From positions 723-64,722 of the forward strand of contig JAYUGC010000071.1 in NCBI GenBank assembly GCA_043767805.1: a stretch of DNA of 64,000 nucleotides. Reading direction: 5' to 3'. Below, piece after piece: positions 181-41,755 of the stretch (positions are counted from its first letter, which is position 1; each line of letters begins with the position of its first letter). Source of the DNA: Pseudomonadota bacterium (GTDB lineage: Bacteria > Bdellovibrionota > FAC87 > UBA2466). A model generated the notes under the pieces. That model had not been told where the DNA came from, made no database searches, and was given only the letters and a program-made list of their open reading frames with translations. The position numbers and the translations under genes were made by a program.

Positions 181-3100
181 CTAGAGTTTGAGGCGGCCAC
201 CGCCCGCACACCAACCGGAGCAATCACCGTTGAGATTGTAGGCGCTCTGGCCGCCGTAAATAAGAAGATAGCCCGCGCCTACAACGGAAGTGTGAAACGA
301 GCGGGCCAAGGGCCCGCCGTAAGTGGTAATCGCAGTCCAGGCGTCAGTAGCCGGGTCGTAATAAGCGCCGCCACTGTAACCAGTCGCAGCGCCGTTACCG
401 AACGTGCCGCCCCAAACCGCCATCTTGGATCCGGTCCATACGATAGTGTTGTCGGTCCAATGCACTGGGGCGTTCGTCGTCGACATCGACGCCCAGGTAT
501 TGGTCACGGGATTGTATTTTCCCACGGTGAAACTGTTGAGGTTCCGTGCGTAAACCAACATGCGGGCGCCACCCCAAACCGCCTTAGGCGCAATGGTTGC
601 GCCGGGGGTCGGCTGTCCCGTCGAGCTCATTACGGTCCAAGTGTTCGTGGCAAGCGTGTAAACGCCGCCCGTCACAATATAGTTGCCGCCCCAGATCAGC
701 AGTTGGGTTCCCGTCCAAACTCCCGCTTGTCCATAGCGGGCGGCGGGAGCAGTGGTCGTTGAAATGCGAGTCCATTGTGCCGTGGTAGGATCATAAAGGC
801 TTCCCGCATTTGTGCTGATGCCTCCGTACCCGTAGGTATCCACGCCGCCCCAAATGAGCATTTTCGAGCCAGTCCACACCCCAGTGGCGTCCACGCCGGC
901 CGGATGCACGTTGGCGCCGGTTCCAGTAGGCGTCCAAGTGTTACTCGCGAAATCGTAAACGCCGCCCGTGCTGGTGCCTTGCCAGAAAGCGATACGGCCG
1001 CCCCAAATGATCATTTTGGTCCCAGTCCAGACGGCGTTGGGCTGAATGCGCGCTTGCGGCGCATTAGTCGAAGACATCGCCGTCCACGAGTCGGTGACCG
1101 GGTTGTAAATGCCTCCACTATTTAGCATGACGGTGGGTTGGTCACTGCCCGCGCCATTTCGCCCGCCCCAAATGAGCATGCGCGAGCCCGTCCAGACTGC
1201 CGCATGCATACCGCGTCCCGTCGGGGCGCCGGTCGTGGTGATGGTTAGCCAATCTCCCGGGCCTAGATAAGTGAAAGCGTTGCGAACTCCGTAAGCCCCG
1301 TCCGTGTGGGTGGCCCTCACCTCTACCGTGCCATTCGTCGACGAAGCGGGCGTCACGCAGGTGAACTGAGTCGAATTGACGTAGACGAGGCTCGTGCAAT
1401 TGACGCCATTGAATTTCACCGTGTCCGTCGACTGGAAATTCGTTCCGGTTACAGTCACCGGCGTTCCGCCCGCGACAGGACCGCTCGAAGGAGCAACGGT
1501 GCGTATGGTCGGGACCAAGGCATAGGTATAGCCGTTGTAGAGACTACCCGAGATTCCGGACGTATTTGTTACGAGAACGGTGTACATACCGGCGGCTTTC
1601 GCCCCGGTCGTACAGGTGATGGAGGTCGAAGTGACTACCACGACTGAAGTGCAAGCCGTCCCGCCAATGGAAACCGTAGCTCCCGAGCGATACCCGCTAC
1701 CGGTAAGAGTTATCGGAGTGCCACCCGCCGTGGAACCGCCCGAGGGACTTATCGAGAAGAGGCGCGGGGGAAACTGGAAAGTAAAACCGTTAGTCAAAGT
1801 GCCCGTGCCCGGTGTTGTCGTGACCGATACGTTTACGGCCCCCTCACTCGCAGACGACGGCGCCGTACAAAGCAGCATTCCGTAAAAGAGATAGGTCGTC
1901 GACAAACAGGCCACTCCACCAATCGAAGCGGTTGCGTTGGACTCGAAACCGGTGCCGAAGATGCTAGTGGCCGTGCCACCCGAGGTGGTGCCTACATTAG
2001 GCGTAATGGAAGTCACGATCGGTGTGGCGGCGGTATAAGTGTACCCATTTAGCTTTTCGCCCCCATAGCCGTCATCCCTATTAGTGACGGTTACGGTGAC
2101 GGCTCCCGCGTTGAAGGGAGGGACCGTGCAAGTAATTGACGTCGAGCTGACGAAAACGATGGAATCGCAGTAGCGACCCGGGCCGATCTCGACGTACGGA
2201 TTCGTATGAAAATTTAATCCGGTAATGGTAATGGCCGTACCGCCGTGTACGGTTCCCGAGGACGGAGAGACGGTCGAAACGACGGGAGTATCGACGTACT
2301 GATAGGCGCCGACCGCAGTGGCGCTCTGTAAATCCGTATTCGTGACGACGACATTGACCGTGCCCGCCGCGTGCGCGCCAGTGTCGCAAGTCAGTAGGGT
2401 GCTACCGTAAAATTGAATCGAACCGCAATTTACGCCGCCCACACTGACCGTTGCCCCTGCATTGAAATTGGATCCCCGTATCGTGATGTTCTGGCCTCCC
2501 AAGGAAGTTCCGAGGTTAGGCGATACTGACGTAATCAACGGCGCACTTTGGTAGGTGAACCCATTGGTGAGCGTGCCCGTGCCGCCCGTAGTGGTGACGA
2601 CTACGTTAACCGCACCCGCCGCATGGGCGCCTGTCGTGCAATGAATCTGGGTTGCGGAGTCGACGACAAGCGTGCCACAACTCACGCCCCCGATGGACAC
2701 GGTCGAACCGGCTTCGAACGCCGTTCCGCGAATGGTGACCACGGTACCACCGGCCAAGGGCCCAGCCGCGGGCGCAATCGACGTGACGGTCGGCGCTGCA
2801 GCCGTATAGGTGAAGGCGGAGGCTTTAGTGCCCGCAAACGTATCCGAATTAGTCACAGTCACCGTCACCGCACCGGCCGCATGCGATGAAGTCGTGCAGG
2901 TTATGGAGGTGACACTTGCCACAACAAGCGAACCGCAACTCGATCCGCCGAAACTTGCTGTCGCGCCGGCAAGAAATCCGGTGCCTGTAATGGTGACCGG
3001 CGTTCCGCCGCCCACGACTCCCGAAGCGGGACTAACGGAGCTGACCGTGGGAGGGTCGCGGTACGTAAACGCACTACCCAGCGTGACCGACTGGCCGTCG

Positions 3101-6100
3101 GCATTAGTGACAATGATGTCATACGTGCCCGCCGCTTTGGCCGGCGTGACGCAACCAATTTGGGTCGAGCTGATAAGGTTGACCCCGTTGCAAATGCTTC
3201 CGCCTACCGTGACGGATACGCCAGCGAGAAATCCCGTGCCCGTGATGGTTATGGGAGTCGTTATTTGAGAATTCCCGAGGGTAGGAGCTACCGACGAAAT
3301 CGTCGGCGCAGGTTGATAAGTGTAGCTATTGGACAAAGTGCCCGTGCCGCCCGAGGTGGTAACCGCGACGGATACCAACCCTGCGGCATGAGACGTCGTC
3401 AAGCAAGTGAGGCGCGTTAAGCTCACGATGACCAAGCTCGCGCAGTTCGATCCGCCCAGCGCGGCAGTCGCTCCCGCAATGAAACCCGTTCCGGTAATGG
3501 TGACGGGGGTATCGCCCAGGGTATTACCGGCGATCGGCGTAATGGCGGTCACGACGGGCGCCGCCGCGGTATAGGTGTACGCGGTCGCCCTATTTCCGTT
3601 TTGGCCATCACTGTTGGTGACGGTAACGGTCACAGCCCCGACGGCATGTGCCGTGGTGGTACAAGTAATCGAAGTGCTGCTAGCCACGTTCACGCCGGCG
3701 CAAGCCGAGCCGCCGAAATCGACGGTGGCGCCAGAAACGAAACCCGTACCAGTGAGAGTTACCGGAGTCCCGCCATTGAGAATTCCTGTAGCAGGGCTCA
3801 CGTCCGCCGTAATCGTCGGAGCCGCCCGGTACGTATATCCGCTGGTAAGCGTTCCGGTTTGACCGACTGAGGTCACCACCACGTTGACCGCCCCGGCCGC
3901 ATGCGCGCCCGTGGTGCAGGTAATTTGCGTCCTGGAATCAACCGTAAGCGTGCCGCAGTTAACTCCGTCAATGGCAACGGTAGCCGCCGAATGATAATTG
4001 GTACCGCGAATGACGACGACCGTTCCGCCCGCCGTCGACCCGCCGGAGGGGGTGATATTGGCCACCGTGGGCGCGCCCCAATAAGTAAAGGCATTGTCCA
4101 GGTGGCCTTCCGCGCCGTCAGCGTTGGTAACCTTGACCGTAACCGGACCAGCGCCGTGAGCCGGCAAAGTACAGGTGTAGAGGATCGCGCTCGAGAAAGA
4201 GGCGGAGCCACACGTCACTCCGCCGAAATCGATGGTCGCCCCAGTTACGAAGCCGGTCCCGTTGATAGTTACCGTGCCTCCGCCAGCAATGGCGCCGAAG
4301 GTCGGGGTCACACTGGTAACCGTAGGAGGCGAAACGTAAGTGAAAGCGTTCGTCAAAGTGGCGGTGGTCCCGTCTGGATTGGTAATGACCACGTTCACCG
4401 CCCCGGCCGCATGAGCGCCCGTGGAACAAGTAAGATCCGTCGTCCCGGTGACGAAGGGGTTCGTACAAGTCACGCCTCCGACGGTGACAGTGGCCGCTCT
4501 GTCGAAATTTGTTCCCGTCAGAACGATCGCCGTACCGCCTAAAGTAGTCCCTGAAGTGGGAGCAACAGCCGAGAGAGTGAGGGTCGGAAGGTAAGTGAAC
4601 GCGTTCGTCGCGGTTCCCGTCGAGGAGTTTACGGTCACCACCACGTCCACCTGCCCGGCCGCATGCGCGCCCGTGGTACAACGAACTTCCGTGGAGCTGA
4701 TGAAACTAAACGAACCGCAGCTCACCCCACCGAGAGCCACCGAGGTAACCGAGTTCACGAAACCACTACCCAAGATGGTAACTGGAGTCCCTCCGGCACT
4801 TGAGCCAACGGTCGGACTAATGGAGTTGATTTGGGGCGAGCTCGAAAATACGCCCGTGGTGATATCGATCTTGGTCGTCAAAGCGCCGGTATAAGTTCCG
4901 TCCCCACCGCGCCCGACGGCGTATACGTAGGAAGTATCCGCGAAATAGGACATGGCATTTAAGACTTCGTCGTAAGAACCGAGCGCGCTCGATGAGGAGA
5001 TGCCGTTCGTGCCGAAGCCATTTACTAAAGCTCCCGCGGAACTGATTTTTGCGGCCACCGGATCATAGTTGGTGCCGTTGTAAACCGTTCCCACCATGAT
5101 GATGTTGGTTCCGCTCGGCGGCGGCTCGACGGTATTCAGAATACAGTCTTGGGTCGGCGTAGTGCCGCCGTTGTGAGAAAAGATGGTAATGCCCTTCAAG
5201 TTCGTTCCGCCGGTAATGGTGACGGAACCGAAGCCGGGATCGAGCGTACCGGGCGAGGTCGAAGTTCGCACCGCAACCGCGGCGCAGTTCCAAGGCGGAG
5301 TCGTATCGTTAATGCGGGTCGCGCCCACGGCAACCACGTACGTCGAAAAGACGGCGAGGCTCGTGGGAATAGAGTCGGTACCGCCGCCCGCTTGAGTCAT
5401 GTCGATGACGTCGCCCCAGGGGCTCGCGCTCTCGGCGAAGGCTGTCGTAAAGCGATGGACAAAGAAGTGGTTTGAGCCTGAGGTCTCCGTCGACGTTACG
5501 TAATAGTTGGTGCTACCGCCTACCGCGACGGCGGTGGCTGTTCCGTCGATACGGGCGACGGTGTTCGAGTTGACGAACGCGCCATTGGACCCTTCATAGC
5601 CCGCCACGAAAGGATGAAAAACACCTGGGGTATAAAACCCGATCGCGCCCGCGATGATCACGCGGCTGTTGTTGGCGTCCCAGGCGATGCCACGTACGAA
5701 CGCATGGCCCTTTACGGCGGTTCCGCCTAAAGCCGTCGACACCACGCCCCCCGTACCGAACGTCGCGTCGAGCGTGCCGTTGCGATTGAACTTCATGATG
5801 CGTATGTCGTAGTAGCCGGTCGAAGTCATCGAGCGGCAGGCAGTGAAATAGTGGGTGGTGCTGGCGACGACGGAGTTACAGAGATTGTCGTAACCCGAGA
5901 CTTCGAAATCTCTGAGAATTTTGCCGTTCAGATTGGCGTTGGTCGCCAAAGCGACGTCTTCACGGCCGCTGGCTTTCAAATAGCCGCCGACGATGGCCTG
6001 ATACTGAGTCCCCACCCAGCTGCGGCCGACGGAAACGAATTGCGTGGAGGAACCGGGCTCGAGAGCGGTGCCGCGGTAGACGGTATTTCCCGGGCCGACG

Positions 6101-8044: not shown

Positions 8045-8482
8045 ATGAACCGCGCTCAACCGTTTCTAAAAGTTAGTTATATCGCTCTCGCCTTGGTCGC
8101 CTTTTCCGCGACAGGCGCGACCGTGGTCAAGAAAACCACCACGGTTACGTCCCTTGAAGATCCGGGCTCGGATCATGCCGTCGATAACTCAGGCATCAAC
8201 GAGGACCACCGCGGAAAAATCACCGCCGACGATCAAAGCAGGAACCGTTCCGATACGGACATCACGGCAGGGATCCGTAAGGCACTCATTGCCGACGACC
8301 TGCTCTCCACCTACGCCCACAACGTGAAAATCATCACGAAGGACGGGCGGGTCACTCTGAAGGGGCCGGTCCGTTCGGCCGCGGAAAAACTTAAAATCGG
8401 AAGAGTCGCTAGCAATATCGCCGGCGCGAAAAGAGTCAGCAACTTATTGGATGTAAGTCCTGTTAAAAAAGAAGGGGAATAG
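8045..8482 (+). CDS. BON-domain (OsmY-like) exported protein
   Basis: Signal peptide; DTDITAGIRKALIADD...AHNVKIIT..GRVTLKGPV...VSNLLDV. Confidence 0.85.
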   Translation: MNRAQPFLKVSYIALALVAFSATGATVVKKTTTVTSLEDPGSDHAVDNSGINEDHRGKITADDQSRNRSDTDITAGIRKALIADDLLSTYAHNVKIITKDGRVTLKGPVRSAAEKLKIGRVASNIAGAKRVSNLLDVSPVKKEGE

Positions 8483-8487
8483 ATTAA

Positions 8488-9060
8488 ATGAATGAAGAAA
8501 AAAAGAATATTGTCGTGTACGGCATCTTCGATACCCGTTTTAACGTGGAGGAAGCCGTGGACGAGCTCAAAGCCCGCGGGTTTCGTAACACGGATATTTC
8601 GGTGCTGATGGCCGACTCGCAAGGTGCGAAAGAGTTCGCTCATGAAAAGGACACCAAAGCACCCGAAGGTACGGCTATCGGCGTCAGCACCGGCGCTGTA
8701 GTCGGCGGCTCCCTTGGCTGGCTCGCGGGCATCGGAGCGCTCGCCATTCCGGCGGTCGGTCCCCTCATCGCGGCGGGCCCCATCATGGCGTTACTTGCCG
8801 GCGCGGGACTCGGCGGCGCCATCGGCGGTCTCACGGGTGCGCTTATCGGCATGGGCCTTCCCGAGTACGAAGCGAAACGCTTCGAGGGTCGCATCAAAAA
8901 TGGCGGCATCTTGGCGTCCATCCATTGCGACAACGACACCTGGGCCAAACACGCCAAATCGATTCTCGAAGAAACGGGGGCGAAAGACATCTCGACCACG
9001 AGTGAAGCGAAAGCCGACCTACCCGCCGACGAGCACGGCCGACTCCGCAAAACCGGCTGA
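8488..9060 (+). CDS. General stress-type membrane protein with glycine zipper (DUF3341/YflT-like)
   Basis: VYGIFD...AVDELK..GF...DISVL; Gly/Ala zipper; GLPEYEAKRFEGRIKNGGIL; directly downstream of the BON gene. Confidence 0.75.
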   Translation: MNEEKKNIVVYGIFDTRFNVEEAVDELKARGFRNTDISVLMADSQGAKEFAHEKDTKAPEGTAIGVSTGAVVGGSLGWLAGIGALAIPAVGPLIAAGPIMALLAGAGLGGAIGGLTGALIGMGLPEYEAKRFEGRIKNGGILASIHCDNDTWAKHAKSILEETGAKDISTTSEAKADLPADEHGRLRKTG

Positions 9061-22881: not shown

Positions 22882-23526
22882 ATGAAGGGTTTACTGTCCG
22901 TATTGGTTTTGGGTTCACTTGTAGTCGGCACGCAGGCTTTGGCTTTCGGTAACGCGACGACGTTCGATTACCGGCCCGAGGTGGCTCGCCTCACTCGCAG
23001 CCTCGAAATGGGCGGCACGATTCAAGAAGTGCAACGCGCCCTGGACAGCCTTCTCTCGACGGCCATCGCGCATTTGCGGGCACGCGGAAAGAACAAGGAA
23101 GCAGACGACATCGCACTCGAATGGCAGCAGTACCGCCCGCAGCTGGCGCGCCGCAATCTAGGCGATCACGATCCTTTGTTTCCGTGGCTTCGTCGCACTT
23201 ACCAGGTTCTCGAGATCCTCTTGGGCTCTCGCACCATGAAGCAGTATCGCCTGACCGACTTGAACACTTTGAACTTCGCTCTTCCCGTCGTTTTAAATCC
23301 CGAGGGCAAAGGCTGGGATCGCACTGAGTACCGAAAGCACTTCGTGCCGCTCGCGGGCATCACGACGTACTGGAGCACCTTTCTCGGTTGCCGCGCGGTC
23401 ATCGAATGGTCCTTGCTTCAGCGAGTTTGCGGTCCCGCCGCGAGCGCCGCCGGCTGGCTCATGGAAACGACCATTGCTCCCACTCTGAGCGATAAGGTTT
23501 ACGGTCACTTCGCCAAAGGCTTCTAA
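22882..23526 (+). CDS. Hypothetical secreted protein
   Basis: Signal peptide MKGLLSVLVLGSLVVGTQALA; 214-aa helical ORF with a C-terminal Cys pair. Confidence 0.7.
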   Translation: MKGLLSVLVLGSLVVGTQALAFGNATTFDYRPEVARLTRSLEMGGTIQEVQRALDSLLSTAIAHLRARGKNKEADDIALEWQQYRPQLARRNLGDHDPLFPWLRRTYQVLEILLGSRTMKQYRLTDLNTLNFALPVVLNPEGKGWDRTEYRKHFVPLAGITTYWSTFLGCRAVIEWSLLQRVCGPAASAAGWLMETTIAPTLSDKVYGHFAKGF

Positions 23527-24740
23527 AAAGATAGGCCGAAGCCAACGAGTAAGAGGAGCAGGAGAAGAAGACTCCAGCGCTCTCTCGGAAGTAAATCGCA
23601 AGCCGGCATTTCCGCGTTTACTTTGCCTAGAAAGAGAAGCAGGTAGCCGCGGTACATGGTCACGGCCAGTAACCCCATGGCAATCACGCTGAGAGCCGCG
23701 GTAAGCGGTTCCGTCGCGAAGGTCGCCTGGAGCACCAAGTCTTCTCCCAGAAAGCCGAACGTCCCGGGAACGTTCACGGCGCTCAGGCCAAAGATAAAGA
23801 AAAAGGCCGCGATGCCCGGCATGACACGTACCCAGCCGCCGCCTTCGCTCCAACGCTCAAGTCCCGTGCGCTCTTCGACGAGCCAAAGCACGATCCCGAG
23901 ACCTGTCGTCGAGAGCATGGCCGTCACCCAAAGATAGACCGAGCCCATCACACCCAGGTGGCTTGGCATGGCCCAACCGAGAGTCGCCGCGGAAATGAGA
24001 ATCGGATAAAGGAGCCCGAGCCACTTGCGCGGAGATTTTTGCACGACGCCGAGAAACGCAAGATAGAGCGAGGAGATCACCAGCGCACGCACGAGGGTGA
24101 GGCTCGTCTCGGTCAGCGGACAAAGCGGTAGGGCAACTCGCAAGAAGAGCGCGAACGCGCCCGGCGCCGTCAGTAACCCGATACCCAAAGGCAGGGGACT
24201 GTCCTTGAGGAGCGAAAGCGAGCCGGCATGAAAGGGGAACAGGCCGAGCCGCACCCATACGGAAAAAAGAACACAAGTTCCCGCCAGGATCGCGGTACTG
24301 CCGCCCGGCGCCGCGAGTAGCGGCAAGCGGGTAATCAAAAACCACTCGGCGTGCAGGCTTCCCAGGAAGTAGAGCGCCGCCAGTAAACTGAAGGCGCCTA
24401 GGACTTGATAATAAAGGTAGAGACGGTTACGGGCGAGCCATTGCCAGCGATTGCCGGAGCGAGAGACCGCGGCCGGAAAAAGGCCGAGCAGCCAGCAAAG
24501 CCCGACCAGGCGCAAGTCTCCCAAAAAGAGCACGCCCGCATTCATCACTTGAAGAAAGAGCAACGAAAAGACGACCGTCCTGTTTTCCTTACGAGGGGCG
24601 CTGAGCAGAATCAGACAAAAGCAAATCGCTCCGTAAGCTACGCCGAGAAGGGCCGGCCAAGAATTGGGATCCATCGCGGGAAGCGGCCACCAGTAGTAGA
24701 GCGTTGCCAAGAAACCGCCGGCCGAAAAGAGCGCCCTCAT
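23523..24740 (-). CDS. NuoM-like proton-conducting membrane subunit, third gene of the DAB operon
   Basis: RLGLFPFH, PGTFGFLGEDL; translationally coupled to dabB (4-bp overlap). Confidence 0.8.
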   Translation of the reverse strand: MRALFSAGGFLATLYYWWPLPAMDPNSWPALLGVAYGAICFCLILLSAPRKENRTVVFSLLFLQVMNAGVLFLGDLRLVGLCWLLGLFPAAVSRSGNRWQWLARNRLYLYYQVLGAFSLLAALYFLGSLHAEWFLITRLPLLAAPGGSTAILAGTCVLFSVWVRLGLFPFHAGSLSLLKDSPLPLGIGLLTAPGAFALFLRVALPLCPLTETSLTLVRALVISSLYLAFLGVVQKSPRKWLGLLYPILISAATLGWAMPSHLGVMGSVYLWVTAMLSTTGLGIVLWLVEERTGLERWSEGGGWVRVMPGIAAFFFIFGLSAVNVPGTFGFLGEDLVLQATFATEPLTAALSVIAMGLLAVTMYRGYLLLFLGKVNAEMPACDLLPRERWSLLLLLLLLVGFGLSF

Positions 24741-26041
24741 TTTAGGCCTCCTTTCGATTCGTCCCGGGGAGCAAAGCGCGCGAGCCAGCCGTCCTCGACG
24801 CGCTCGAAAAAGACGGCCACTTTCAGTACCGGCCCAACCACCGCCCAGCGTAAAGACTCTTCGAGACTAAAGCCAGCCACCGCCTGACGATAGATCCACG
24901 TCCGAAACGCATCGGGACTCATCCGTTCCCAAAACCGGGGACCCGAAGCGGGGCTCGTGCCGAACAGATTATGATCTTGAAGGAGAGATGGGGCGCGCAA
25001 GAACTGTAAGGTCCTTAGCAGGGCGTGGCCCATCAAATGCCAGATGGCGAGAGTGGTGAGCCCCAAACCGATCTCCGCAAATATTAGGCCGACCTGCGAG
25101 AGGCAAGCAAAGGCCAATTTCGATTTCGCATCAGGGCGAGCCAAGCCGACCGTGGTTCCATAGATCGCCGTCGAAACCCCGATGAGCACGATTAGAAACG
25201 GAACGAGACCCGACGCCTGCCAGACGACTCGCGTGCGTAGTAGCAAATAGGCTCCGGCGTGAATCGACAGGCCTCCGTAAAAAAGCGCGCTCGACGGTGT
25301 CGGGCCTTCCATCGCTTTGGGTAACCACCAGCTGAGCGGGAGCTGCGCGGATTTGGCGAGTGAGGCCACCAGAAGTAAAATCGCGAGGAGCAGCCTCGGC
25401 TCGGGCAAACCTTGCGGAGAAACGTCAAAGCGCGCGGTATCGAACTGCTGATGCCAGGCAACCGTGGCGAGAATCAACGCCACATCGCAAATCCGATAGG
25501 CGATCCAAGCCGTGTAGCCATGTTGAGCCGGCTGATCGCGGTAATGGAAAAAGCCGATGAGGAGCGCCGAGCTAATGCCCACCATCTCCCAGCCCGCCAC
25601 CAATAAATCGATAGTGCCCGCGAGCAAGGTGAGGTTCATCCCGGCGACAAAAAGGAGATAGAGCAAGAAGAAGCGAGAGAAGCCTTCCTCGCGGTGAAGA
25701 TACTGAAACGAGAAAAGCCCACTTGCCGCAGAAAGAATGGTGGTGACGACCAGGATGGGAAAGGAAAGCGCGTCGGCCCTGAAGAGAAACTCGAACTCGT
25801 AGTTTCCGATCTTGAACCAGTGCCCAGGCTCCCACTGAGCCAGGTGTCTGGTGCTAAGCAAGATTTCCCCGCCCACGACGAGAGTCGAGAGGACCAAGGC
25901 GAGGATGACCACGCTGACCACCCCGCGAATTCCCGATTCCTTGAGCTGAAGATTTAGGATCGCGGCGAGCCCCACGAGGACGAACGCGGCGAGAGGCACA
26001 CCCACCAGAGAGAAGAGGCTGACTGCGAGCGAATCGATCAT
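24737..26041 (-). CDS. dabB: DabB/MpsA, NuoL-like subunit of the inorganic carbon pump
   Basis: GWEMVG, AKSAQLP..WLPKAMEGPTPSSAL, HLMGHALLR; coupled to the DUF2309 gene. Confidence 0.85.
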   Translation of the reverse strand: MIDSLAVSLFSLVGVPLAAFVLVGLAAILNLQLKESGIRGVVSVVILALVLSTLVVGGEILLSTRHLAQWEPGHWFKIGNYEFEFLFRADALSFPILVVTTILSAASGLFSFQYLHREEGFSRFFLLYLLFVAGMNLTLLAGTIDLLVAGWEMVGISSALLIGFFHYRDQPAQHGYTAWIAYRICDVALILATVAWHQQFDTARFDVSPQGLPEPRLLLAILLLVASLAKSAQLPLSWWLPKAMEGPTPSSALFYGGLSIHAGAYLLLRTRVVWQASGLVPFLIVLIGVSTAIYGTTVGLARPDAKSKLAFACLSQVGLIFAEIGLGLTTLAIWHLMGHALLRTLQFLRAPSLLQDHNLFGTSPASGPRFWERMSPDAFRTWIYRQAVAGFSLEESLRWAVVGPVLKVAVFFERVEDGWLARFAPRDESKGGLK

Positions 26042-28863
26042 ATCGCCACCCCCGTGACTAGAACGGGCCTCAAGTTATCTCTTTTTCCGACGTAATAGGC
26101 CGGGGAAGCGGAAACTTCGAGCAGGGCCGGGTCTTCCGGATGGTATGGCTGGAATTTCCCACGGTAAAAACGCGCAAGCGCGCCCGTAGTCGGATCGACC
26201 AGGACCAGTTGAATCCAATCGTTTTCAACGGCGCGCCGGATGCCCGCGTGGGCCGCGAGCACCTTTTCCATCTTGAAAAGGTCCGTCTCGACCAGAGTCA
26301 GCAAACGCATGGGCTCGTGGATTTCCACCATTTGCAGGGGCAATCCCGCGCGCAAATCGGAGAACGCGCCGTTGGTCACCCCGATGAGACCGGAGATATT
26401 GTGCGGAAGCTTCGTTCCCGAGCCGTACTCTTCGTTATCGACGTAGGAAAAATAGTACTCGAGGCTGATGCCCGCGCACACCGGCACGACGGCGGAAAGG
26501 CTTCGTAGAAGAATGTCTCCGGTCGGGTCCTGGGCGTTGTCGTAAGAGGTCAAAAACGCCCGGCGATCCAGAAATAGCCCTCGCGTCAGCCGCCGAGGCG
26601 CGATGATGAGCGAAGCATTGCTCGCATGACCGCACTCGGGCCGTGGCTCCCGTAGATCCTGGCAACGGCCCTCCACGTGCTGGAGCGCGAGCGGCGCCGA
26701 AAGATGCCTCGCCGAATCAAAACGGCGGCATCTTTCGTGCGCGTCGAACATGCGCGCGCGATTGAGGACCGTGGTCGCATGCTGGAATGCTTGCGCGTGC
26801 GTTTTGGGTACGGAGGCCTCGTCGAAAAAACGCACCGAGTCCGAGCACGTATCGTGCAGCCCGCCGATGAACCAAGTCGTGACGGGAATAATGATTCCCT
26901 TTTCCTTTATGAGAGCGCGCACCGCGGGAAGATTCGCCATCGCGGCGAACGCGCGCGCGTTCGGGCCGCCTCCCCTGCCTCCACAAGCGCCGCAATCGTA
27001 GGCGGACTTGTGAGGGTTATTGGCGCTACTCGATCCGTGTCCCAGGATGACGACGAGACGGGAGAATTTTTTGGTCAGCCCAAGCTCGCCGAGCACCGCC
27101 TGTACGCGCTCCGCCATGTCGGCCACAGAAAAGCCCGCTTGAATTTGGGCATCGGGCGCCGCGGGAACCGCGGTTTCCAGAGCCAGCCCGGTCTCCATTT
27201 CGGGGAGGAACGTCTCCCGCAAAATCCGTTTCAGCCGGCCGCTGAGCCTCGGAGAATGTAAGCGCAGACCGAGCGGCACGACGGCGAGCACACCGCCCGC
27301 GACACTCATCGCGAGCCCCCCCAAGGGATGGCGCGAGCCGTGATGCACGGTCTTTCGCACCGTTCTGACGAGGTGATGGCGTCCCTTCCCGTCTTTTTGC
27401 GCGGGAGAGCGCGGCGCTTCCGAAATGGCATGCTTCGGACGGACCACCACGGGACAAAGGGGCACGGGGAACGAATCGTAAATTCCCTGGTACCACATAT
27501 CGACCGAGAAAAAGCCGGCGATCGAGAACGTCTCGGCGCGCGGATCGGCCTCTTCGAGATGCCGGCGCAAAGACTCCTCCCGCTCGTCGATACAAGTCAC
27601 CAGCTGAACCGAAGGGCCGTCGGCGGAAACCGCGGTCTTAGGCCGGCGCAGATTGATGGCGACCGCATCGAGCACGCGGCAGCGGTACGTGCGCTCGAAA
27701 GCGCGGTGGAGAAAACGGCGCCGAGGCACGTCCGAGAAAGCGTCGATTTCTTCGAGGAGCGCGTTCAGATCCCCGGCCTCACGAATCAGAGGCGCCGAAA
27801 GGCCCACTTGTTGAAAGAAACGAAACGCCTCGTAAACCCGGTGCAAACTCCCGGGCACGCGGCTGCTTGCCGCAGAAGGCTCCAGGCGGGCTTTGAGGGA
27901 AAGCTTGAGTAGTAGCCGGACCGCTAGAAAGTCGGCGAGCGAAGCGCGCACGGGCTGACTGACCAGATGGGGGCGATGCTCGAGAACCGCCATCATGCCG
28001 GCCCAGCCGGGAAGGCAGAGCAGCTCGCGCACGATGAGCGTTTCCCACTCCGCGCGAGGCACGCCGAGGCGGGACAAGCAGAGCTCGCAGGTTTGGAACG
28101 CGTCCCGGCCGTCGAGCTCTTTCCAATTCCACTGGCGAGGGACCCAACGAAGTCCCTCGGGCAAGAAGACTTCCCCGTCCTCCGCCAAAGCCCGGAACGC
28201 GGCTAGAAATCCCTTGTCGCGATCGGGCATCGCCCAGCGAGAGACGCCTTGGTCGAGAAAGGAGGCCGCGAGACGAATCAAAATGCCATTGAGCTCTCCG
28301 GCCTCGGGCGCGTCGGTTTTTTTCTGAGATCTCGCTTCGAATTTCACTCGCGAGCGCAGGACTTCCCAAAGCGCGGACAAAGCTTCCGCGGGGGTCTTGG
28401 CGCCCGACTCAGAGAGAAAGCGCCGGCGCGCCGGCGCTTCGACTCCCTTTTGAAACTCGGTCGCTTCCTTTTTTTCGCGCAGGAGCCAAGTGATGGTCTC
28501 GTCGGCGAAGGGCCGCGACGCAATGGACAACAAGGCTCGCCACACTTCGGTTTGAGAGAGCCGGCCTCCCAAAAAACGACGCCCCGGCGCGGCGCTTTCC
28601 GCATCTGCCAAAGCTAAGATCTCGTCGAGGTCTTGTTCGCGAATGCGGCCCTGGCCCAATTCCTTGAGGTACCGCTCGTGAGTGAGGTAGGGCTCGGAGC
28701 CCCGCATCTCGGCGGCCCATTCGACCATGTCCTCGAACTTTTTGTCCTCGAACGCGACGAGCGGATTCTGATGAATGAAAACGCCGATGGGCCCTTGTTC
28801 GGGCAATAGGCGAGCGGCTTGTTTGACCGCCCCCTCGATAATGTTTCGCGCTTCGCTGTCCAT
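26038..28863 (-). CDS. dabA: DabA/MpsB (DUF2309) beta-CA-like subunit of the inorganic carbon pump
   Basis: PIGVFIHQNPL, CIDEREESLRRHLE, LGHGSSSANNP, YDCGACGG, LFLDRRAFLTSYD, HEPMRL. Confidence 0.92.
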   Translation of the reverse strand: MDSEARNIIEGAVKQAARLLPEQGPIGVFIHQNPLVAFEDKKFEDMVEWAAEMRGSEPYLTHERYLKELGQGRIREQDLDEILALADAESAAPGRRFLGGRLSQTEVWRALLSIASRPFADETITWLLREKKEATEFQKGVEAPARRRFLSESGAKTPAEALSALWEVLRSRVKFEARSQKKTDAPEAGELNGILIRLAASFLDQGVSRWAMPDRDKGFLAAFRALAEDGEVFLPEGLRWVPRQWNWKELDGRDAFQTCELCLSRLGVPRAEWETLIVRELLCLPGWAGMMAVLEHRPHLVSQPVRASLADFLAVRLLLKLSLKARLEPSAASSRVPGSLHRVYEAFRFFQQVGLSAPLIREAGDLNALLEEIDAFSDVPRRRFLHRAFERTYRCRVLDAVAINLRRPKTAVSADGPSVQLVTCIDEREESLRRHLEEADPRAETFSIAGFFSVDMWYQGIYDSFPVPLCPVVVRPKHAISEAPRSPAQKDGKGRHHLVRTVRKTVHHGSRHPLGGLAMSVAGGVLAVVPLGLRLHSPRLSGRLKRILRETFLPEMETGLALETAVPAAPDAQIQAGFSVADMAERVQAVLGELGLTKKFSRLVVILGHGSSSANNPHKSAYDCGACGGRGGGPNARAFAAMANLPAVRALIKEKGIIIPVTTWFIGGLHDTCSDSVRFFDEASVPKTHAQAFQHATTVLNRARMFDAHERCRRFDSARHLSAPLALQHVEGRCQDLREPRPECGHASNASLIIAPRRLTRGLFLDRRAFLTSYDNAQDPTGDILLRSLSAVVPVCAGISLEYYFSYVDNEEYGSGTKLPHNISGLIGVTNGAFSDLRAGLPLQMVEIHEPMRLLTLVETDLFKMEKVLAAHAGIRRAVENDWIQLVLVDPTTGALARFYRGKFQPYHPEDPALLEVSASPAYYVGKRDNLRPVLVTGVAI

Positions 28864-28902
28864 GTGTCCCCGGATCCGTGTCCAAGCTAGAGCCTAAAGG
28901 GA

Positions 28903-28951
28903 GCTCGCCGCTAAAAAAGCGCCGAGCGAAATCGTCTGACCGAAGTCAGAC
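28903..28951 (-). promoter_or_regulatory. Two tandem hairpins between the RAPP leader ORF and dabA
   Basis: GTCTGAC-TTCG-GTCAGAC (C(UUCG)G loop) covering the leader stop codon, then GCTCGgCGCT-TTTT-AGCGgCGAGC. Confidence 0.6.
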
Positions 28952-29263
28952 CGGCGGAGCCCGGCTCGCCCGGAAAGCGATCTGGAAGCGACTAAAAGAA
29001 ATCAGGCCGCGTGCGGAGGGGGCCCGCCACGACGACTCGGATTCGAGCCGAAACGGGCAAGCGGGCAAAAACCCGTCTTTGCGGCTTTCATCGCGTTCCT
29101 CCAGCTCGCTCGGGACGCTACCGCGAGACTCGCCGAGCTGTCTAAAGGAGCCACGCTCCTGCGAAAGCGGCTTGGAAAGCACTCGATTGCCCGTACGAGG
29201 GAGCGCGGCGTCAGCGCCGGTCAAAAGGAGGGCAAAAATGAGAAGCCAGGGGCCGTACTTCAT
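28946..29263 (-). CDS. Putative leader/arrest peptide with signal peptide and C-terminal RAPP motif
   Basis: MKYGPWLLIFALLLTGADA...FRASRAPPV*; 105 aa; ends 82 nt upstream of dabA on the same strand. Confidence 0.7.
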   Translation of the reverse strand: MKYGPWLLIFALLLTGADAALPRTGNRVLSKPLSQERGSFRQLGESRGSVPSELEERDESRKDGFLPACPFRLESESSWRAPSARGLISFSRFQIAFRASRAPPV

Positions 29264-29273
29264 AAGAGGCTCT

Positions 29274-29302
29274 AGGTTACCCCTCCCCGCTTTCTTACTC
29301 AA
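29274..29302 (-). promoter_or_regulatory. Sigma70-type promoter for leader-dabAB
   Basis: TTGAGT-17 bp-TAACCT ending 10 nt before ATG 29263. Confidence 0.55.
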
Positions 29303-29400
29303 TGCGCTATTTCCCGATTTCGCAAACGGGCTCCCTGCCGCCAGTTGCCCAACGCTTCATTTCAGGGAAAACTGCCCGGATGCACGATTCCCGGGGCGAG

Positions 29401-30525
29401 ATGGAAAATGCCCAAGAGTTCCGCCGCCGGCTTTGGGTCAGACAGCTTTACCGCGAGTACGATCAAATCGTGTATCGCTACCGCGTCGGCTTGAACGCTC
29501 CCGTCCTGAAGGTCGGTATCATGGTCTCGAAGTTCGGCTATTGGGATCCGCTCATGCGGGTCATCACCCTCAGCCAGGATCTCATCGAAAAGCACCCTTG
29601 GGACATCGTCATCGAGATTTTGAAGCACGAAATGGCCCATCAGCTCGTGGACGAAGTGTTCCGAGGCTCGTCGGGCCACGGCAAGGACTTTAAAGACGCC
29701 TGCGTGACTTTGGGGGTCGCCCCTTGGGCCGTGTCGGCGACCGGAGAGCTCCCGAAAGAAGTGCCGCGGTGGCGAGACCGCGCGCTTTCCGAGGAAGAGG
29801 AGCGCCTGCTCCGGCGCGTGGAAAAACTTCTGGCGCTCGCCGAGTCCACCAACGAGCACGAAGCGGCGCTCGCCATGCAACGAGTGCAGGAGATTTACCG
29901 GAAGTACAACCTCGCTCAGATCTCGGGCGCGCTCCAGCCGGCCCTCGTCTACTCGATGATTTGCCGCAAGCGGCGCAAGCTGTCTCGCCCCGAAGCTCTC
30001 ATCTTCTCGATTCTGGGGGAGCATTACTTCGTGCGTGTAGTGCACGGGCATGTTTTCGATGCGAAAGATGGCTGCGAGTACGTGATGGCCGAGCTCATGG
30101 GAACGCGCGAGAACGTGCTCATGGCCGAGTACGTCCACGCCTTTCTCTGGACGCAGATTCATTCGCTCTGGAGAAGCTACCAAAAGGAAACGCGGGCGCC
30201 CGGACGAAGAAAAAACTCTTACCTACTCGGCGTCCTCGCGGGTTTTCGAGAGAAGCTTCGCCATAGCGCGGAGGCGGCTCCCGCGCCGGCGGCTCCCGTT
30301 TCCAATCTCACGGCGCTCGTCGCCGCCGCCGACAAACGGGTCGACGAGTTCGTGCGGGCTCGTCACCCGCGGCTGTCTCGCAGCACGGGCCGCACGGTGT
30401 ATAGCGATCCTTCGCTCTTTGAGGCCGGAAAAGCCGAGGGCAAGAAGCTCACCTTGCGTAAAGCCGTCACTGAAAAGCAGGGCAACCGGGCGTTGCTTCT
30501 CAACAAAGGCACGACTCGCAAATAG
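29401..30525 (+). CDS. SprT-like metallopeptidase plus DUF2786 domain protein
   Basis: ILKHEMAHQ...HGKDFK; RVEKLLALAESTNEHEAALAMQRVQE; start uncertain (29302/29380/29401). Confidence 0.8.
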   Translation: MENAQEFRRRLWVRQLYREYDQIVYRYRVGLNAPVLKVGIMVSKFGYWDPLMRVITLSQDLIEKHPWDIVIEILKHEMAHQLVDEVFRGSSGHGKDFKDACVTLGVAPWAVSATGELPKEVPRWRDRALSEEEERLLRRVEKLLALAESTNEHEAALAMQRVQEIYRKYNLAQISGALQPALVYSMICRKRRKLSRPEALIFSILGEHYFVRVVHGHVFDAKDGCEYVMAELMGTRENVLMAEYVHAFLWTQIHSLWRSYQKETRAPGRRKNSYLLGVLAGFREKLRHSAEAAPAPAAPVSNLTALVAAADKRVDEFVRARHPRLSRSTGRTVYSDPSLFEAGKAEGKKLTLRKAVTEKQGNRALLLNKGTTRK

Positions 30526-38981: not shown

Positions 38982-39332
38982 ATGCGCCTGAGACGAAATT
39001 CCAACTGCTTCTTGATAGTCCTCTCCTTTCTCTCGGTGTTCTTACTCGGGGATGCGCTTTCGTTCAGCCTGGCGCCCACACCGGCGGATAACGCCGACCG
39101 GGTGCTCGCCTCCTCTCCCGAATCCCCTTCTCAATTTCCGCTTCTCTACTGTGATGCCTCCGAAGCGTCCGACTGTTCGGATTCTATTCTGGACGACGGC
39201 CCGATCGACATGGCCTTGAGCTCTTTCGAATGGAGCCCGTCCGTCCAGCTAAGCTGGCCCGCGCGGGCTCCCTCGGTGATCTCACCCACGGCTGATCTGG
39301 GCCTCATCCACAAACCTCCGGAACTTTCCTAG
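38982..39332 (+). CDS. Putative leader peptide with signal/TM segment and C-terminal HKPP motif
   Basis: MRLRRNSNCFLIVLSFLSVFLLG...acidic Ser/Asp linker...LGLIHKPPELS*; directly upstream of sulP-can. Confidence 0.6.
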   Translation: MRLRRNSNCFLIVLSFLSVFLLGDALSFSLAPTPADNADRVLASSPESPSQFPLLYCDASEASDCSDSILDDGPIDMALSSFEWSPSVQLSWPARAPSVISPTADLGLIHKPPELS

Positions 39333-39452: not shown

Positions 39453-41102
39453 ATGCGAAAAGTGAACACGAAGATAAAGCTAAAACGCTTTTCCAGCTCC
39501 CCCCTGCTTAAATCCGCCCGTCCGAATCGGCGGGCCACGCGCCTCATGCGGGTCTATTGGGAACGAAACCTCCTGAAGAATTTCCGTTACGATTTCTCGG
39601 CGTCCATCGTCGTGTTTCTCGTAGCTCTGCCGCTGTGCCTAGGGATCGCCTTGGCCTCGGACGCGCCTCTATTTTCGGGCGTCATTACCGGCATCATCGC
39701 GGGCATGATCGTGGCCTTACTCTCGGGCTCCGAGCTGAGTATCAGTGGGCCGGCGGCGGGCCTCACGGTGATTGTCGCGAGCGGTATCAAATCCGTGGGC
39801 GGGTTCGATGCTTTTCTAGTCGCCGTGGTTCTGGCGGGCGTCTTCCAGTTTATTCTGGGGCTCGTCCGGGCGGGGTCCATCGCGAGCTTATTCCCCTTAA
39901 GCGTAATCAAGGGAATGCTCGTCGCCATCGGCATCACCATCATCCTGAAGCAGATCCCCCATGCGTTAGGAGCCGCGGGAGGCTTTGAGAGCGACATGGA
40001 ATTTCTTTCCTGGCTCGGCAAAGACACGGCCGTGCATCACTTCGCGGCGACTCTCGTCTCTTTCAAAGGCTCTGTGGTGATGATCTCCCTATCGAGCCTC
40101 GCGCTCCTGAGGCTGTGGGACTCGCCGCAGGTCAAGAAGAGCCCCGTGCTCGCCAAGATCCCGGGTCCTTTGCTTGCCGTTCTCTTCGGATCTCTGCTGA
40201 ACGAAATCTTTCAAGTGGGTTTTCCGCATCTCGCGCTCCAAGCGGCCGACGGGCACCTAGTGCAACTCCCTCTGCTTAGTTCGCCGCTCGCCATCTTGAA
40301 CGAGCTGCGCTTTCCCGCGTTTGCGGCCATCAAGAATCAGAACGTTTGGGTTCTCGCCATGACCTTGGCCGCGGTCGGCAGCATCGAGACGTTGCTGTGT
40401 CTCGAATCGACCGACCGTATCGATCCGCAGAAACGCGTCTCAAACCCGAACCGAGAGCTTCTGGCGCAAGGAACCGGCAATATTCTCGCGGGCCTCATCG
40501 GCGGCATTCCGATGACCTCCGTCATCGTGAGAAGCTCGGCGAATATTTACGCCGGGGCCCGCACCCGTATCTCGGGCTTTCTTCATGGCGCCATTCTCCT
40601 TCTCTCGGTGCTGGCGTTACCCTGGTTCTTGAACCACATCCCGCTCGGTTCTTTGGCGGCCATTCTCATCATGGTCGGCTATAAGCTCGCGAGCCCGGCC
40701 CTCTTCAAGAAGATGTGGCAGGGCGGATTGGACCAGTTCATCCCGTTCGCCGTCACGATTGCCGCCATCCTCGCGCTCGACCTGCTGAAAGGCGTGTTGA
40801 TTGGAACCATTTGCGGGCTGATCTTCGTGCTCCGGGCGGGGTACTCGTCGGCCCTTCTAGTGGTGACCGAAGGCAACGACGTTCTCTTTCGCTTCACCAA
40901 GGACGTGACTTTCATTCACAAGGTGAAGCTCCGCAAAGAGCTCGCGTCAATCGAGCCGGGATCGAACGTCATTTTCAACGCGACTCGCGCGACCTACATC
41001 GACAACGACATCATCCAAATGCTGTCCGAGTTTCAGGAGACCGCGGGAAGCCGCGAGCTCCACGTCGAAATGGAAAACGTATTTCAAAAGAAACGGCACT
41101 AA
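39453..41102 (+). CDS. SulP/SLC26 anion transporter, probably bicarbonate
   Basis: VFLVALPLCLGIALAS, ISGPAAGL, NRELLAQG, SVIVRSS, short STAS-like tail; adjacent to carbonic anhydrase; start may be 39546. Confidence 0.92.
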   Translation: MRKVNTKIKLKRFSSSPLLKSARPNRRATRLMRVYWERNLLKNFRYDFSASIVVFLVALPLCLGIALASDAPLFSGVITGIIAGMIVALLSGSELSISGPAAGLTVIVASGIKSVGGFDAFLVAVVLAGVFQFILGLVRAGSIASLFPLSVIKGMLVAIGITIILKQIPHALGAAGGFESDMEFLSWLGKDTAVHHFAATLVSFKGSVVMISLSSLALLRLWDSPQVKKSPVLAKIPGPLLAVLFGSLLNEIFQVGFPHLALQAADGHLVQLPLLSSPLAILNELRFPAFAAIKNQNVWVLAMTLAAVGSIETLLCLESTDRIDPQKRVSNPNRELLAQGTGNILAGLIGGIPMTSVIVRSSANIYAGARTRISGFLHGAILLLSVLALPWFLNHIPLGSLAAILIMVGYKLASPALFKKMWQGGLDQFIPFAVTIAAILALDLLKGVLIGTICGLIFVLRAGYSSALLVVTEGNDVLFRFTKDVTFIHKVKLRKELASIEPGSNVIFNATRATYIDNDIIQMLSEFQETAGSRELHVEMENVFQKKRH

Positions 41103-41128: not shown

Positions 41129-41755
41129 ATGGAACCTACTACCAAGCTACTGCTAAACAACAAAGCGTGGGCCCACGAAAAGACCAAGCTCAATCCGAAC
41201 TACTTCAAGGAGCTGTCCAAGGATCAGCAGCCTGAGTTTCTGTGGGTGGGTTGTTCCGATAGCCGCGTTCCCGCCGAGGAAGTCACCGGAACGGAAGCCG
41301 GCCAAATTTTCGTGCATAGAAACATCGCGAACCTCGTCATTCACGCCGACTTCAATTTCCTGAGCGTCCTTCTGTATGCCGTGCAAAATCTGAAGGTCAA
41401 ACACATCATCATTTGCGGTCATTACGGTTGCGGCGGCGTTCGCGCCGCGCTCTCTCGGGAAAACTTCGGCCCCCTCAATAAGTGGATTCACTACATCAAA
41501 GAAGTGGCCCACAAGCACGCGGGCGAGCTCAATGGCCTTAACGACGAAAACGTCTTCAAAAGAATGATCGAATTGAACGTCGAAGAGCAGGTGAAGAACC
41601 TCTCGCGTACGGCGACCATCCAGCGCGCGTGGAAAGAGACGGATGGACCGATGATTCACGGCTGGGTCTTCAATATGGAAGACGGTCTCATCACCTCGCG
41701 GGTAACGATGGGACCAAACTCTCCCGTCGACGCTCCGTTTAAGTTCAGGCTGTAG
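41129..41755 (+). CDS. can: Beta-class carbonic anhydrase
   Basis: WVGCSDSRVP, FVHRNIAN, CGHYGCGG zinc ligands; AGGAG RBS. Confidence 0.95.
   Translation: MEPTTKLLLNNKAWAHEKTKLNPNYFKELSKDQQPEFLWVGCSDSRVPAEEVTGTEAGQIFVHRNIANLVIHADFNFLSVLLYAVQNLKVKHIIICGHYGCGGVRAALSRENFGPLNKWIHYIKEVAHKHAGELNGLNDENVFKRMIELNVEEQVKNLSRTATIQRAWKETDGPMIHGWVFNMEDGLITSRVTMGPNSPVDAPFKFRL

Follow-up and report, generated by a model that had tools for sequence, protein, structure and literature searches.

In a 64,000-nucleotide (nt) window of contig JAYUGC010000071.1 from a member of the Bdellovibrionota (assembly GCA_043767805.1; 'the window' means this whole stretch, and positions are counted from its first letter), the gene dabA, encoding the carbonic-anhydrase-like subunit of the DAB inorganic-carbon pump, is preceded by a short open reading frame (ORF) that ends in Arg-Ala-Pro-Pro (RAPP) and a single further residue. 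This ORF is almost certainly a translated, conserved leader that combines a signal-peptide-like N-terminus with a presumed arrest motif next to the stop codon. It is probably an arrest leader of the RAPP type, exported co-translationally and acting in cis on genes for inorganic-carbon uptake. Its architecture is seen again specifically at the head of dabA and sulP-dabA operons, and look-alike peptides before such operons in five phyla suggest that carbon uptake may be switched by a stalling nascent peptide. The original prediction, made from the letters of the window, had noticed the RAPP-terminated ORF and missed its membership in a larger group of leaders associated with genes for inorganic-carbon uptake.

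The leader ORF upstream of dabA

The leader (Table 1) starts at an ATG at 29263..29261 and occupies most of the 438-nt gap between dabA and a divergent SprT-like gene. Its 3' end, CGG GCT CCG CCG GTC TGA at 28963..28946, reads R-A-P-P-V-stop and places the two prolines at residues 103-104 of 105. With dabA following on the same strand after 82 nt, the RAPP-terminated ORF upstream of dabA is as originally described. We assigned the signal-peptide-like segment by reading the translation together with a hydropathy score (2.7); the part after it is hydrophilic. The protein contains one Cys and no His, which bears out the earlier remark that it has one Cys only and no CxxC. A Pfam scan matched no family at E-values up to 0.01, DUF2946 included.

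The interval first given for the leader, 28946..29302, does contain an ORF, on the minus strand, which had been omitted. That ORF is the TTG-extended form of 118 amino acids (aa), and the peptide quoted with it begins at the ATG at 29263. We favor this ATG over the TTG because the ATG-AAG of a paralogous leader on C66, described below, aligns with it and the paralog has an in-frame stop six codons upstream of its own start. The leader also has an internal Trp-Arg-Ala-Pro-Ser at 29018..29032 (minus), about 20 residues ahead of the terminal RAPP.

A paralog and a homolog of the leader

A second leader is found in the same genome (G000; 4.52 Mb, 58% G+C) on C66, at 4267..3932 of locus L124 on the minus strand. 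It has 111 aa, ends in RAPP plus three residues and aligns with the window leader from end to end at 37% identity (E 1e-12), with the signal segment conserved. Identity between the two is specific to the coding frame (43 of 96 aligned residues, compared with 17/86 and 12/86 in other frames), and nucleotide identity at the three codon positions is 0.50, 0.67 and 0.31, with proportions of nonsynonymous (pN) and synonymous (pS) differences of 0.40 and 0.82, the latter saturated. The frame-specific identity and the codon-position pattern therefore argue for a translated sequence under purifying selection.

Fifty-eight nucleotides downstream of the C66 leader lies a SulP gene (Sulfate_transp, E 8.4e-58), whose product shares 62% identity with the SulP encoded ahead of dabA at locus L031. 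This locus, from the metagenome-assembled genome (MAG) G010 of the Pseudobdellovibrionaceae, the family of the window, holds the best relative of the window's DabA. It has the order leader, sulP, dabA and two NuoL-like genes, and its single leader is homologous to that of the window: 101 aa with a signal peptide and a tail of RAPP plus three residues, and with GGAGG 6 nt before a TTG start. In an alignment of the three leaders (window, C66 and L031), the R, A, P and P columns are invariant. In the window's genome, sulP and dabA are apart and each has its own leader copy, which suggests that the leader would be needed in cis.

The paralog, the codon-position pattern and the homolog heading sulP-dabA in a relative of the same family are the reasons for which we take the ORF to be real. 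The leader frame is also the best of six by codon usage, with a G+C content at third codon positions of 0.70 compared with 0.71 in the training ORFs. Among the 64327 six-frame ORFs of at least 40 aa in the genome, 58 have R[AG]PP in the last eight residues, and the two most hydrophobic N-termini among these belong to the window leader and the C66 ORF (2.52).

Recurrence before dabA and sulP-dabA in other genomes

We collected the 80 best dabA loci from other species-representative genomes and counted the 65 with at least 700 nt of upstream sequence, dropping 15. In 14 of the 65, an ORF ending in R[AG]PP plus 2-7 residues occupies the leader position, with a signal-peptide-like N-terminus in 13, and the 14 loci come from Planctomycetota, Bdellovibrionota, Acidobacteriota, Thermodesulfobacteriota and Gammaproteobacteria. 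Directly before dabA, free-standing signal-peptide ORFs were found in six Planctomycetota loci, and all of them end in a basic residue followed by Pro-Pro (RGPP in L037, L040, L056 and L092; RAPP in L108; RPPP in L110). Before sulP-dabA, R[AG]PP ORFs were found in L031, L035, L039, L046, L048, L049, L053, L055 and L086, a set drawn from Bdellovibrionota, Acidobacteriota, Thermodesulfobacteriota and Gammaproteobacteria, with a clear signal-like N-terminus in all except L049.

On both strands of the 80 loci, the 5428 ORFs of 60-220 aa include 16 with an R[AG]PP ending, and 11 of these 16 lie in the leader position, which makes up 2% of the strand space. The corresponding binomial probability of 7e-16 overstates the case since related genomes are not independent, although five phyla are involved. 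Control motifs across the same loci gave 3 ORFs for A[AG]PP, 0 for K[AG]PP, 5 for PP[AG]R, 5 for R[AG]AP and 18 for R[AG]PA. Taken as a whole object, the leader is above chance, considering its paralog, the way identity differs between codon positions and the reappearance of such ORFs in other genomes.

Beyond the motif, leaders from different phyla share no alignable sequence; only those of the window, C66 and G010 could be aligned. A Pfam scan of 13 leaders (that of the window and 12 others) matched no family. The tail after Pro-Pro is 1-7 residues long in 22 leaders. No conserved metal-type sensor motif was found in the leaders, and a candidate noticed by eye, Cys followed by acidic or hydrophobic residues, was rejected, as the Cys lies anywhere from 4 to 117 residues from the motif, once in the tail, and some leaders are Cys-free. 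Among 19 rows of the screen, L043, which ends in ITPPG, and L109, with its ORF at 8454..8834 downstream of dabA, are not leaders; the L137 candidate falls inside the dabB ORF.

Leaders within Bdellovibrionota

DabA is encoded in 16 of 41 relatives of the window's genome and in 61 of 301 sampled Bdellovibrionota genomes, and relatives of the window's DabA come from MAGs and isolates that belong to seven or more other phylum-level groups. Among the relatives, leaders precede sulP-dabA in G018 (RGPP) and in G026 and G028 (RAPP), and variants without the Arg were found in G025 (LSPP), G021 (LPPP) and G013 (LPPP); at the dabA locus G012:C2 no leader was seen. G026 and G028 carry tandem leaders (L115, 762..1061 and 1855..2181; L118, 902..1060 and 1851..2183), in which an RGPP-ending ORF comes first and the RAPP-ending leader before sulP-dabA second. 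The RGPP-ending ORF of G026 precedes a DUF2490 gene (E 1.9e-22).

Fifty further Bdellovibrionota dabA loci were typed by Pfam, four of which (L150, L142, L159 and L165) have too little upstream DNA to be assessed. Leaders were found at five of the ten sulP-dabA loci (IPPP, TPPP and RPPP tails; one locus unassessable), at three of the five loci in which an ORF of unknown type separates sulP from dabA (SPP and PPP tails; two unassessable, none leaderless) and, directly before dabA, at two of 20 loci in other contexts (TGPP and NGPP; one unassessable). R[AG]PP proper was absent from all 50 loci. The general theme in the phylum is therefore a signal-peptide leader with Pro-Pro near the stop codon, and the strong RAPP or RGPP form has been seen within it in the window's own family and order. 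The leaders accompany the sulP-linked or stand-alone long DabA type and not classic dabB-dabA.

Endings of IPPP, TPPP, RPPP, LPPP, SPP or GPP followed by 1-6 residues were seen in L143, L149, L151, L153, L160, L138, L139, L167, L168, L170, L112, L113 and L117. Plain polyproline pauses are normally relieved by elongation factor P (EF-P), and leaders of the PPP, SPP and GPP types may work differently from, or more weakly than, those with RAPP or RGPP. Two other gene arrangements were observed in these genomes. Between sulP and dabA, the loci L138, L139, L142, L159 and L167 share a conserved ORF of some 390-410 aa that matches no Pfam family. The place of a short leader directly upstream of dabA is taken, in one family of Bdellovibrionota, by a protein of 227-248 aa with a signal peptide and again no Pfam match (in orientation, L148 2319..3002, L154 2291..2998 and L156 2234..2980).

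Predicted RNA structure around the leader end

Two hairpins are predicted in both the minimum free energy (MFE) and centroid structures of the leader end and spacer (Table 1). The first would sit inside a ribosome stalled on RAPP and may have a function. With a ribosome footprint on RAPP, the predicted exposure of the dabA ribosome-binding site (RBS) in the window rises from 0.33 to 0.49. A terminator scan reported a sole terminator-like site, which falls within dabA, and no sigma-54 pattern was seen by eye upstream of the leader.

Evidence weighing against a stalling leader

The results in this section count against the reading of the ORF as a conserved leader that stalls and regulates. Among 16771 six-frame ORFs of 80-160 aa in the genome, 10 have RAPP within the last eight residues, and control motifs in the same ORFs are about equally frequent (AAPP 9, RAPA 9, PPAR 11, RPAP 7); the RAPP ending alone is at chance level in this genome. 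In a crude proxy of the proteome, RAPP is mildly depleted, with 23 occurrences observed and 33 expected. The codon-usage score of the leader stands at the 5th percentile of windows from real genes and is beaten by 17% of spurious ORFs. The tail of the window leader is one residue long, compared with 2-7 in other leaders.

The promoter of the original prediction, TTGAGT and TAACCT with a 17-nt spacer, is literally there and, if used, would probably start the transcript a few bases before the ATG and leave it near-leaderless; the match is weak, however, and a promoter scan of 28500..29700 returned no site. No Shine-Dalgarno sequence lies at the usual distance from the leader ATG, a GGAGGGG ending 16 nt ahead of it. 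Folds of the leader end and spacer in the window, C66 and L031 are not better than those of shuffled sequences (z-scores from -1.76 to +1.10). When the footprint test was applied to 14 loci, mean predicted RBS exposure was 0.37 free and 0.38 with the footprint, and it gained at least 0.1 in only two, the window among them. The predicted RNA structures thus yield no consistent mechanism. A search of sequencing runs found no RNA run containing the leader stretch; four DNA runs from one study, which may be the source of the assembly, gave contigs without differences over 28700..29450.

In a set of 5.8 billion proteins, the leader peptide matched only itself and a profile of the three leaders recovered only the window and G010 proteins. 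Among 1.84 billion representatives, the leader matched itself and, over 6-8 short stretches, three long proteins of 554-972 aa; we read the latter as low-complexity noise, and no homolog was found. A profile search of the 41 relatives returned the three input loci at E <1e-3 plus one stop-ridden match, and G001, a genome of the same genus, has neither dabA nor the leader. Within Bdellovibrionota, the leader is missing from all 15 classic dabB-dabA loci, each of which could be assessed, from 4 of 9 assessable sulP-dabA loci and from 17 of 19 in other contexts.

Proposed mechanism and alternative explanations

In the mechanism that we propose, the signal peptide would bring the nascent leader chain to the Sec machinery, and at Arg-Ala-Pro-Pro the formation of the peptide bond to the second Pro would be blocked, with the ribosome stalling at 28957..28952. 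The front edge of this ribosome would then cover the Val codon, the TGA and hairpin 1 (28951..28934). How long the stall lasts would be set by the pull of export on the chain, and hence by something in the envelope, and the dwell time would determine the output of dabA and the membrane subunits. Coupling could follow one of two routes: Rho might be kept off the transcript, as with CruR, or the spacer RNA around the start site might be remodelled, in the manner of CutF and SecM. We judge it likely that the leader stalls and regulates dabA in cis. The coding conservation and the architecture are shown here, whereas stalling, relief of the stall through export, an input signal and a coupling step are inferred. 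The original view of a leader that differs from the copper-type CruR holds up well, given the coding conservation, the class architecture, the lack of a DUF2946 match and the analogues before dabA and sulP-dabA elsewhere.

It is unlikely that the leader is instead a small exported protein acting as a finished product, for example a periplasmic accessory of the SulP and DAB transporters whose proline-rich C-terminus has no stalling role. A conserved coding sequence with a signal peptide that always adjoins transporter genes would suit such a protein, as would the lack of an evident RNA switch. The mature parts, however, have no detectable similarity across phyla and no Pfam family, whereas the signal peptide and the R[AG]PP or Pro-Pro at 1-7 residues from the stop persist, which is the signature of a nascent chain and not of a folded protein. 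In addition, RAPP and RGPP are among the tetrapeptides most avoided in finished proteins (PMC12992588).

Stalling without sensing is more improbable still. Here the Sec-engaged ribosome would hold the polycistronic mRNA at the membrane, so that SulP, the NuoL-like subunits and the docking DabA are made at their site of assembly. Every downstream operon does encode large membrane proteins, the mature parts carry no conserved sensor motif (their Cys residues are scattered, and the window leader has no His), and no consistent RBS-unmasking structure is predicted. Yet the classic dabB-dabA operons, which are equally membrane-bound, are leaderless at every locus typed, and the portions of the arrest-leader literature examined offer no bacterial precedent, both worked examples in them, CruR and CutF, being signal-responsive (PMC9426467, PMC9973294).

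The ORF could also have arisen by chance in an intergenic region of 58% G+C and end in RAPP by coincidence. In favor of this are the sheer number of six-frame ORFs, the parity of RAPP with control motifs, the weak codon-usage score and the lack of a promoter and of a normally spaced Shine-Dalgarno sequence. Such a chance origin is already very unlikely in the face of a paralog with frame-specific conservation and low third-position identity, a homolog in G010 and the recurrence of the architecture in leader position in other phyla.

The dabA operon and neighboring genes

Downstream of dabA in the window, two genes for NuoL/M-like membrane subunits follow with short overlaps (Table 1). Two long ORFs likewise follow dabA in 13 of the 14 other loci examined (L031, L033, L037, L040, L056, L092, L053, L055, L086, L048, L039, L074 and L088); the fourteenth, L108, ends just past dabA. 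The pumps described in the part of PMC13684180 considered here consist of DabA and DabB, or of DabA and DabB with a small DabC that lacks a Pfam domain. An operon of dabA and two full-size NuoL/M-like ORFs instead of a single DabB may represent a distinct DAB subtype.

On the other side of the leader, the first ATG of the SprT-like gene leaves 38 nt to the leader ATG, and starting instead from a later in-frame ATG (about 29380 or 29401) would make the divergent promoter region more typical. A third leader-like ORF stands 120 nt ahead of another SulP gene and, beyond that, a gene for a beta-carbonic anhydrase. This ORF showed no BLASTP similarity to the window or C66 leaders. It contains Ala-Arg-Ala-Pro-Ser about as far from its end as the Trp-Arg-Ala-Pro-Ser of the window leader.

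Table 1. Positions of the leader, its parts and the surrounding features in the window
Feature	Position	Strand	Details
Leader ORF	28946..29263	minus	105 codons and TGA stop; same 105-aa protein called by the gene caller (P0001)
Signal-peptide-like N-terminus, residues 1-19	29207..29263	minus	Lys2, hydrophobic core, Ala-Asp-Ala before the presumed cleavage point
Presumed arrest motif Arg-Ala-Pro-Pro	28952..28963	minus	Codons CGG GCT CCG CCG
Post-motif tail	28946..28951	minus	Single Val codon (GTC), then TGA
Promoter-like hexamers	29274..29302	minus	TTGAGT (29302..29297), 17-nt spacer, TAACCT (29279..29274); 4/6 and 3/6 consensus matches
Predicted hairpin 1	28934..28951	minus	7 bp, UUCG loop; 5' arm formed by the Val codon, the stop codon and one more base
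Predicted hairpin 2, in spacer	28903..28927	minus	9-nt arms with one mismatch, U-rich loop; not a terminator by scan
Spacer, leader stop to dabA ATG	28864..28945	minus	82 nt; fold z-score -1.76, 8-9 of 200 shuffles fold as well
dabA, carbonic-anhydrase-like subunit of the DAB inorganic-carbon pump	26038..28863	minus	941 aa; Pfam PF10070 DabA, E 3.6e-225, profile 1-747 of 747
First NuoL-like membrane subunit, dabB-like	24737..26041	minus	434 aa; PF00361 E 2.8e-32, PF00662 E 3.5e-11; 4-nt overlap with dabA stop
Second NuoL/M-like membrane subunit	23523..24740	minus	405 aa; PF00361 E 3.5e-08; 4-nt overlap with preceding gene
Divergent SprT-like/DUF7168/DUF2786 gene	29302..30525	plus	Pfam
Third leader-like ORF	38982..39332	plus	Signal-peptide-like N-terminus; Lys-Pro-Pro three residues ahead of stop
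Second SulP gene	39453..41102	plus	Sulfate_transp, E 1e-56
Beta-carbonic anhydrase gene	41129..41755	plus	Pro_CA, E 2.4e-49

Implications for inorganic-carbon uptake

DAB complexes are described in PMC13684180 as energy-coupled CO2 pumps in which DabA works with DabB. An export-read, ribosome-stalling leader would give DAB operons a fast post-transcriptional switch, and would bring carbon acquisition within the reach of the recently recognised RAPP/RGPP leaders, alongside protein export and metal homeostasis. What the present analysis adds is the recurrent cross-phylum association of proline-stall leaders with inorganic-carbon uptake operons. A wider and more tentative proposal, to which we give rather less than even credence, is that exported proline-stall leaders form a regulatory layer shared across phyla, in which the leader, while still on the ribosome, would signal a state of the envelope that bears on the supply of CO2 and bicarbonate (for instance the pH or bicarbonate of the periplasm, or the membrane energy on which export and the DAB pump both depend) and would set SulP and DAB expression accordingly; the leader would have been duplicated when sulP and dabA became separated in the genome of the window. 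If this is true, carbon acquisition would gain its first nascent-chain sensor, and DAB pumps their first known regulator in heterotrophs.

The loci also offer natural variation in the form of two paralogous leaders in one genome, R[AG]PP as opposed to PPP, SPP and GPP endings, and the contrast with leaderless dabB-dabA. When DAB and SulP carbon-uptake modules are transferred to other hosts, the native leader may be needed for expression or may limit it.

Comparison with known arrest leaders

According to Fujiwara et al. (EMBO J 2025, PMC12992588), RAPP and RGPP support arrest in several settings unrelated to one another. They rank with the tetrapeptides that proteomes avoid most, but small secretory or membrane proteins encoded ahead of diverse genes are enriched in them close to the C-terminus. 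All seven RAPP/RGPP proteins studied from Streptomyces lividans arrested in an Arg-dependent manner with Bacillus subtilis and S. lividans ribosomes, while with Escherichia coli ribosomes most gave mainly full-length product, and CruR was mapped as arresting with the P site on the third RAPP codon and the A site on the fourth (PMC12992588). The leader of the window has the features by which this class is described in the same source, namely an R[A/G]PP core near the C-terminus of a protein of <300 aa, a localisation signal and a co-oriented downstream gene. It departs from the class text in what lies downstream, namely genes for a CO2 pump of the DAB type and, in the case of the paralog, a SulP gene.

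The phrase 'SulP family inorganic anion transporter' has 15 word hits in the source data for Figure 4 of PMC12992588, with two passages labelled '/ RAPP', so that survey captured SulP-linked RAPP upstream ORFs and did not comment on them. The main text of that paper mentions none of SulP, anion, bicarbonate, transporter, carbon, DabA or DUF2309. The parts of its supplements covered contain no DabA or DUF2309 term, and an unremarked listing is possible in the figures and some files that lay outside the search. The main texts of PMC9973294 and PMC10987492 contain no SulP, DabA, DUF2309 or bicarbonate term, and our literature search turned up no paper that connects DabA or DUF2309 with arrest peptides or RAPP.

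In Bordetella pertussis, arrest at the RAPP of CruR (Bp2923, DUF2946) stops Rho from terminating transcription, so that the operon stays expressed, and this arrest is lifted by copper (Roy et al., mBio 2022, PMC9426467). Like CruR, as it is presented there, the leader is a small exported-type protein with a C-terminal RAPP encoded by the first gene of its operon. Unlike CruR, it has no DUF2946 match and no CxxC, and the genes downstream are not copper genes. With CutF, copper slows export, and the longer stall opens a stem-loop over the ribosome-binding site of the next gene (Ozturk et al., mBio 2023, PMC9973294). By the rules given for CutF-like proteins in that account, the leader is one of <150 aa with Pro-Pro in the last 15 residues, a signal peptide and a same-strand gene within 1000 nt, and the proposed logic is shared, with co-translational export and a C-terminal stall controlling the next gene. 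The leader differs from the CutF-like proteins there in having no Cys/His metal site and in neighbors that are not metal-homeostasis genes. An RBS-shielding stem-loop is not evident from the footprint predictions over the 14 loci, with a rise in predicted exposure in the window.

A RAPP core near the C-terminus and an N-terminal export signal are also features of ApdA and ApdP (Sakiyama 2021, PMC7897499; Morici 2024, PMC10951233; Fujiwara 2024, PMC10987492), to which the protein-set searches revealed no sequence similarity. SecM, MifM, VemP, ApdA and ApdP, the Sec/YidC monitoring substrates, are described as preceding genes of the export machinery and feeding back on them, whereas the leader of the window precedes dabA and NuoL-like genes for carbon uptake. 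Judged by its sequence features, the leader thus likely belongs to the RAPP/RGPP class described in 2025 and is not a DUF2946/CruR member.

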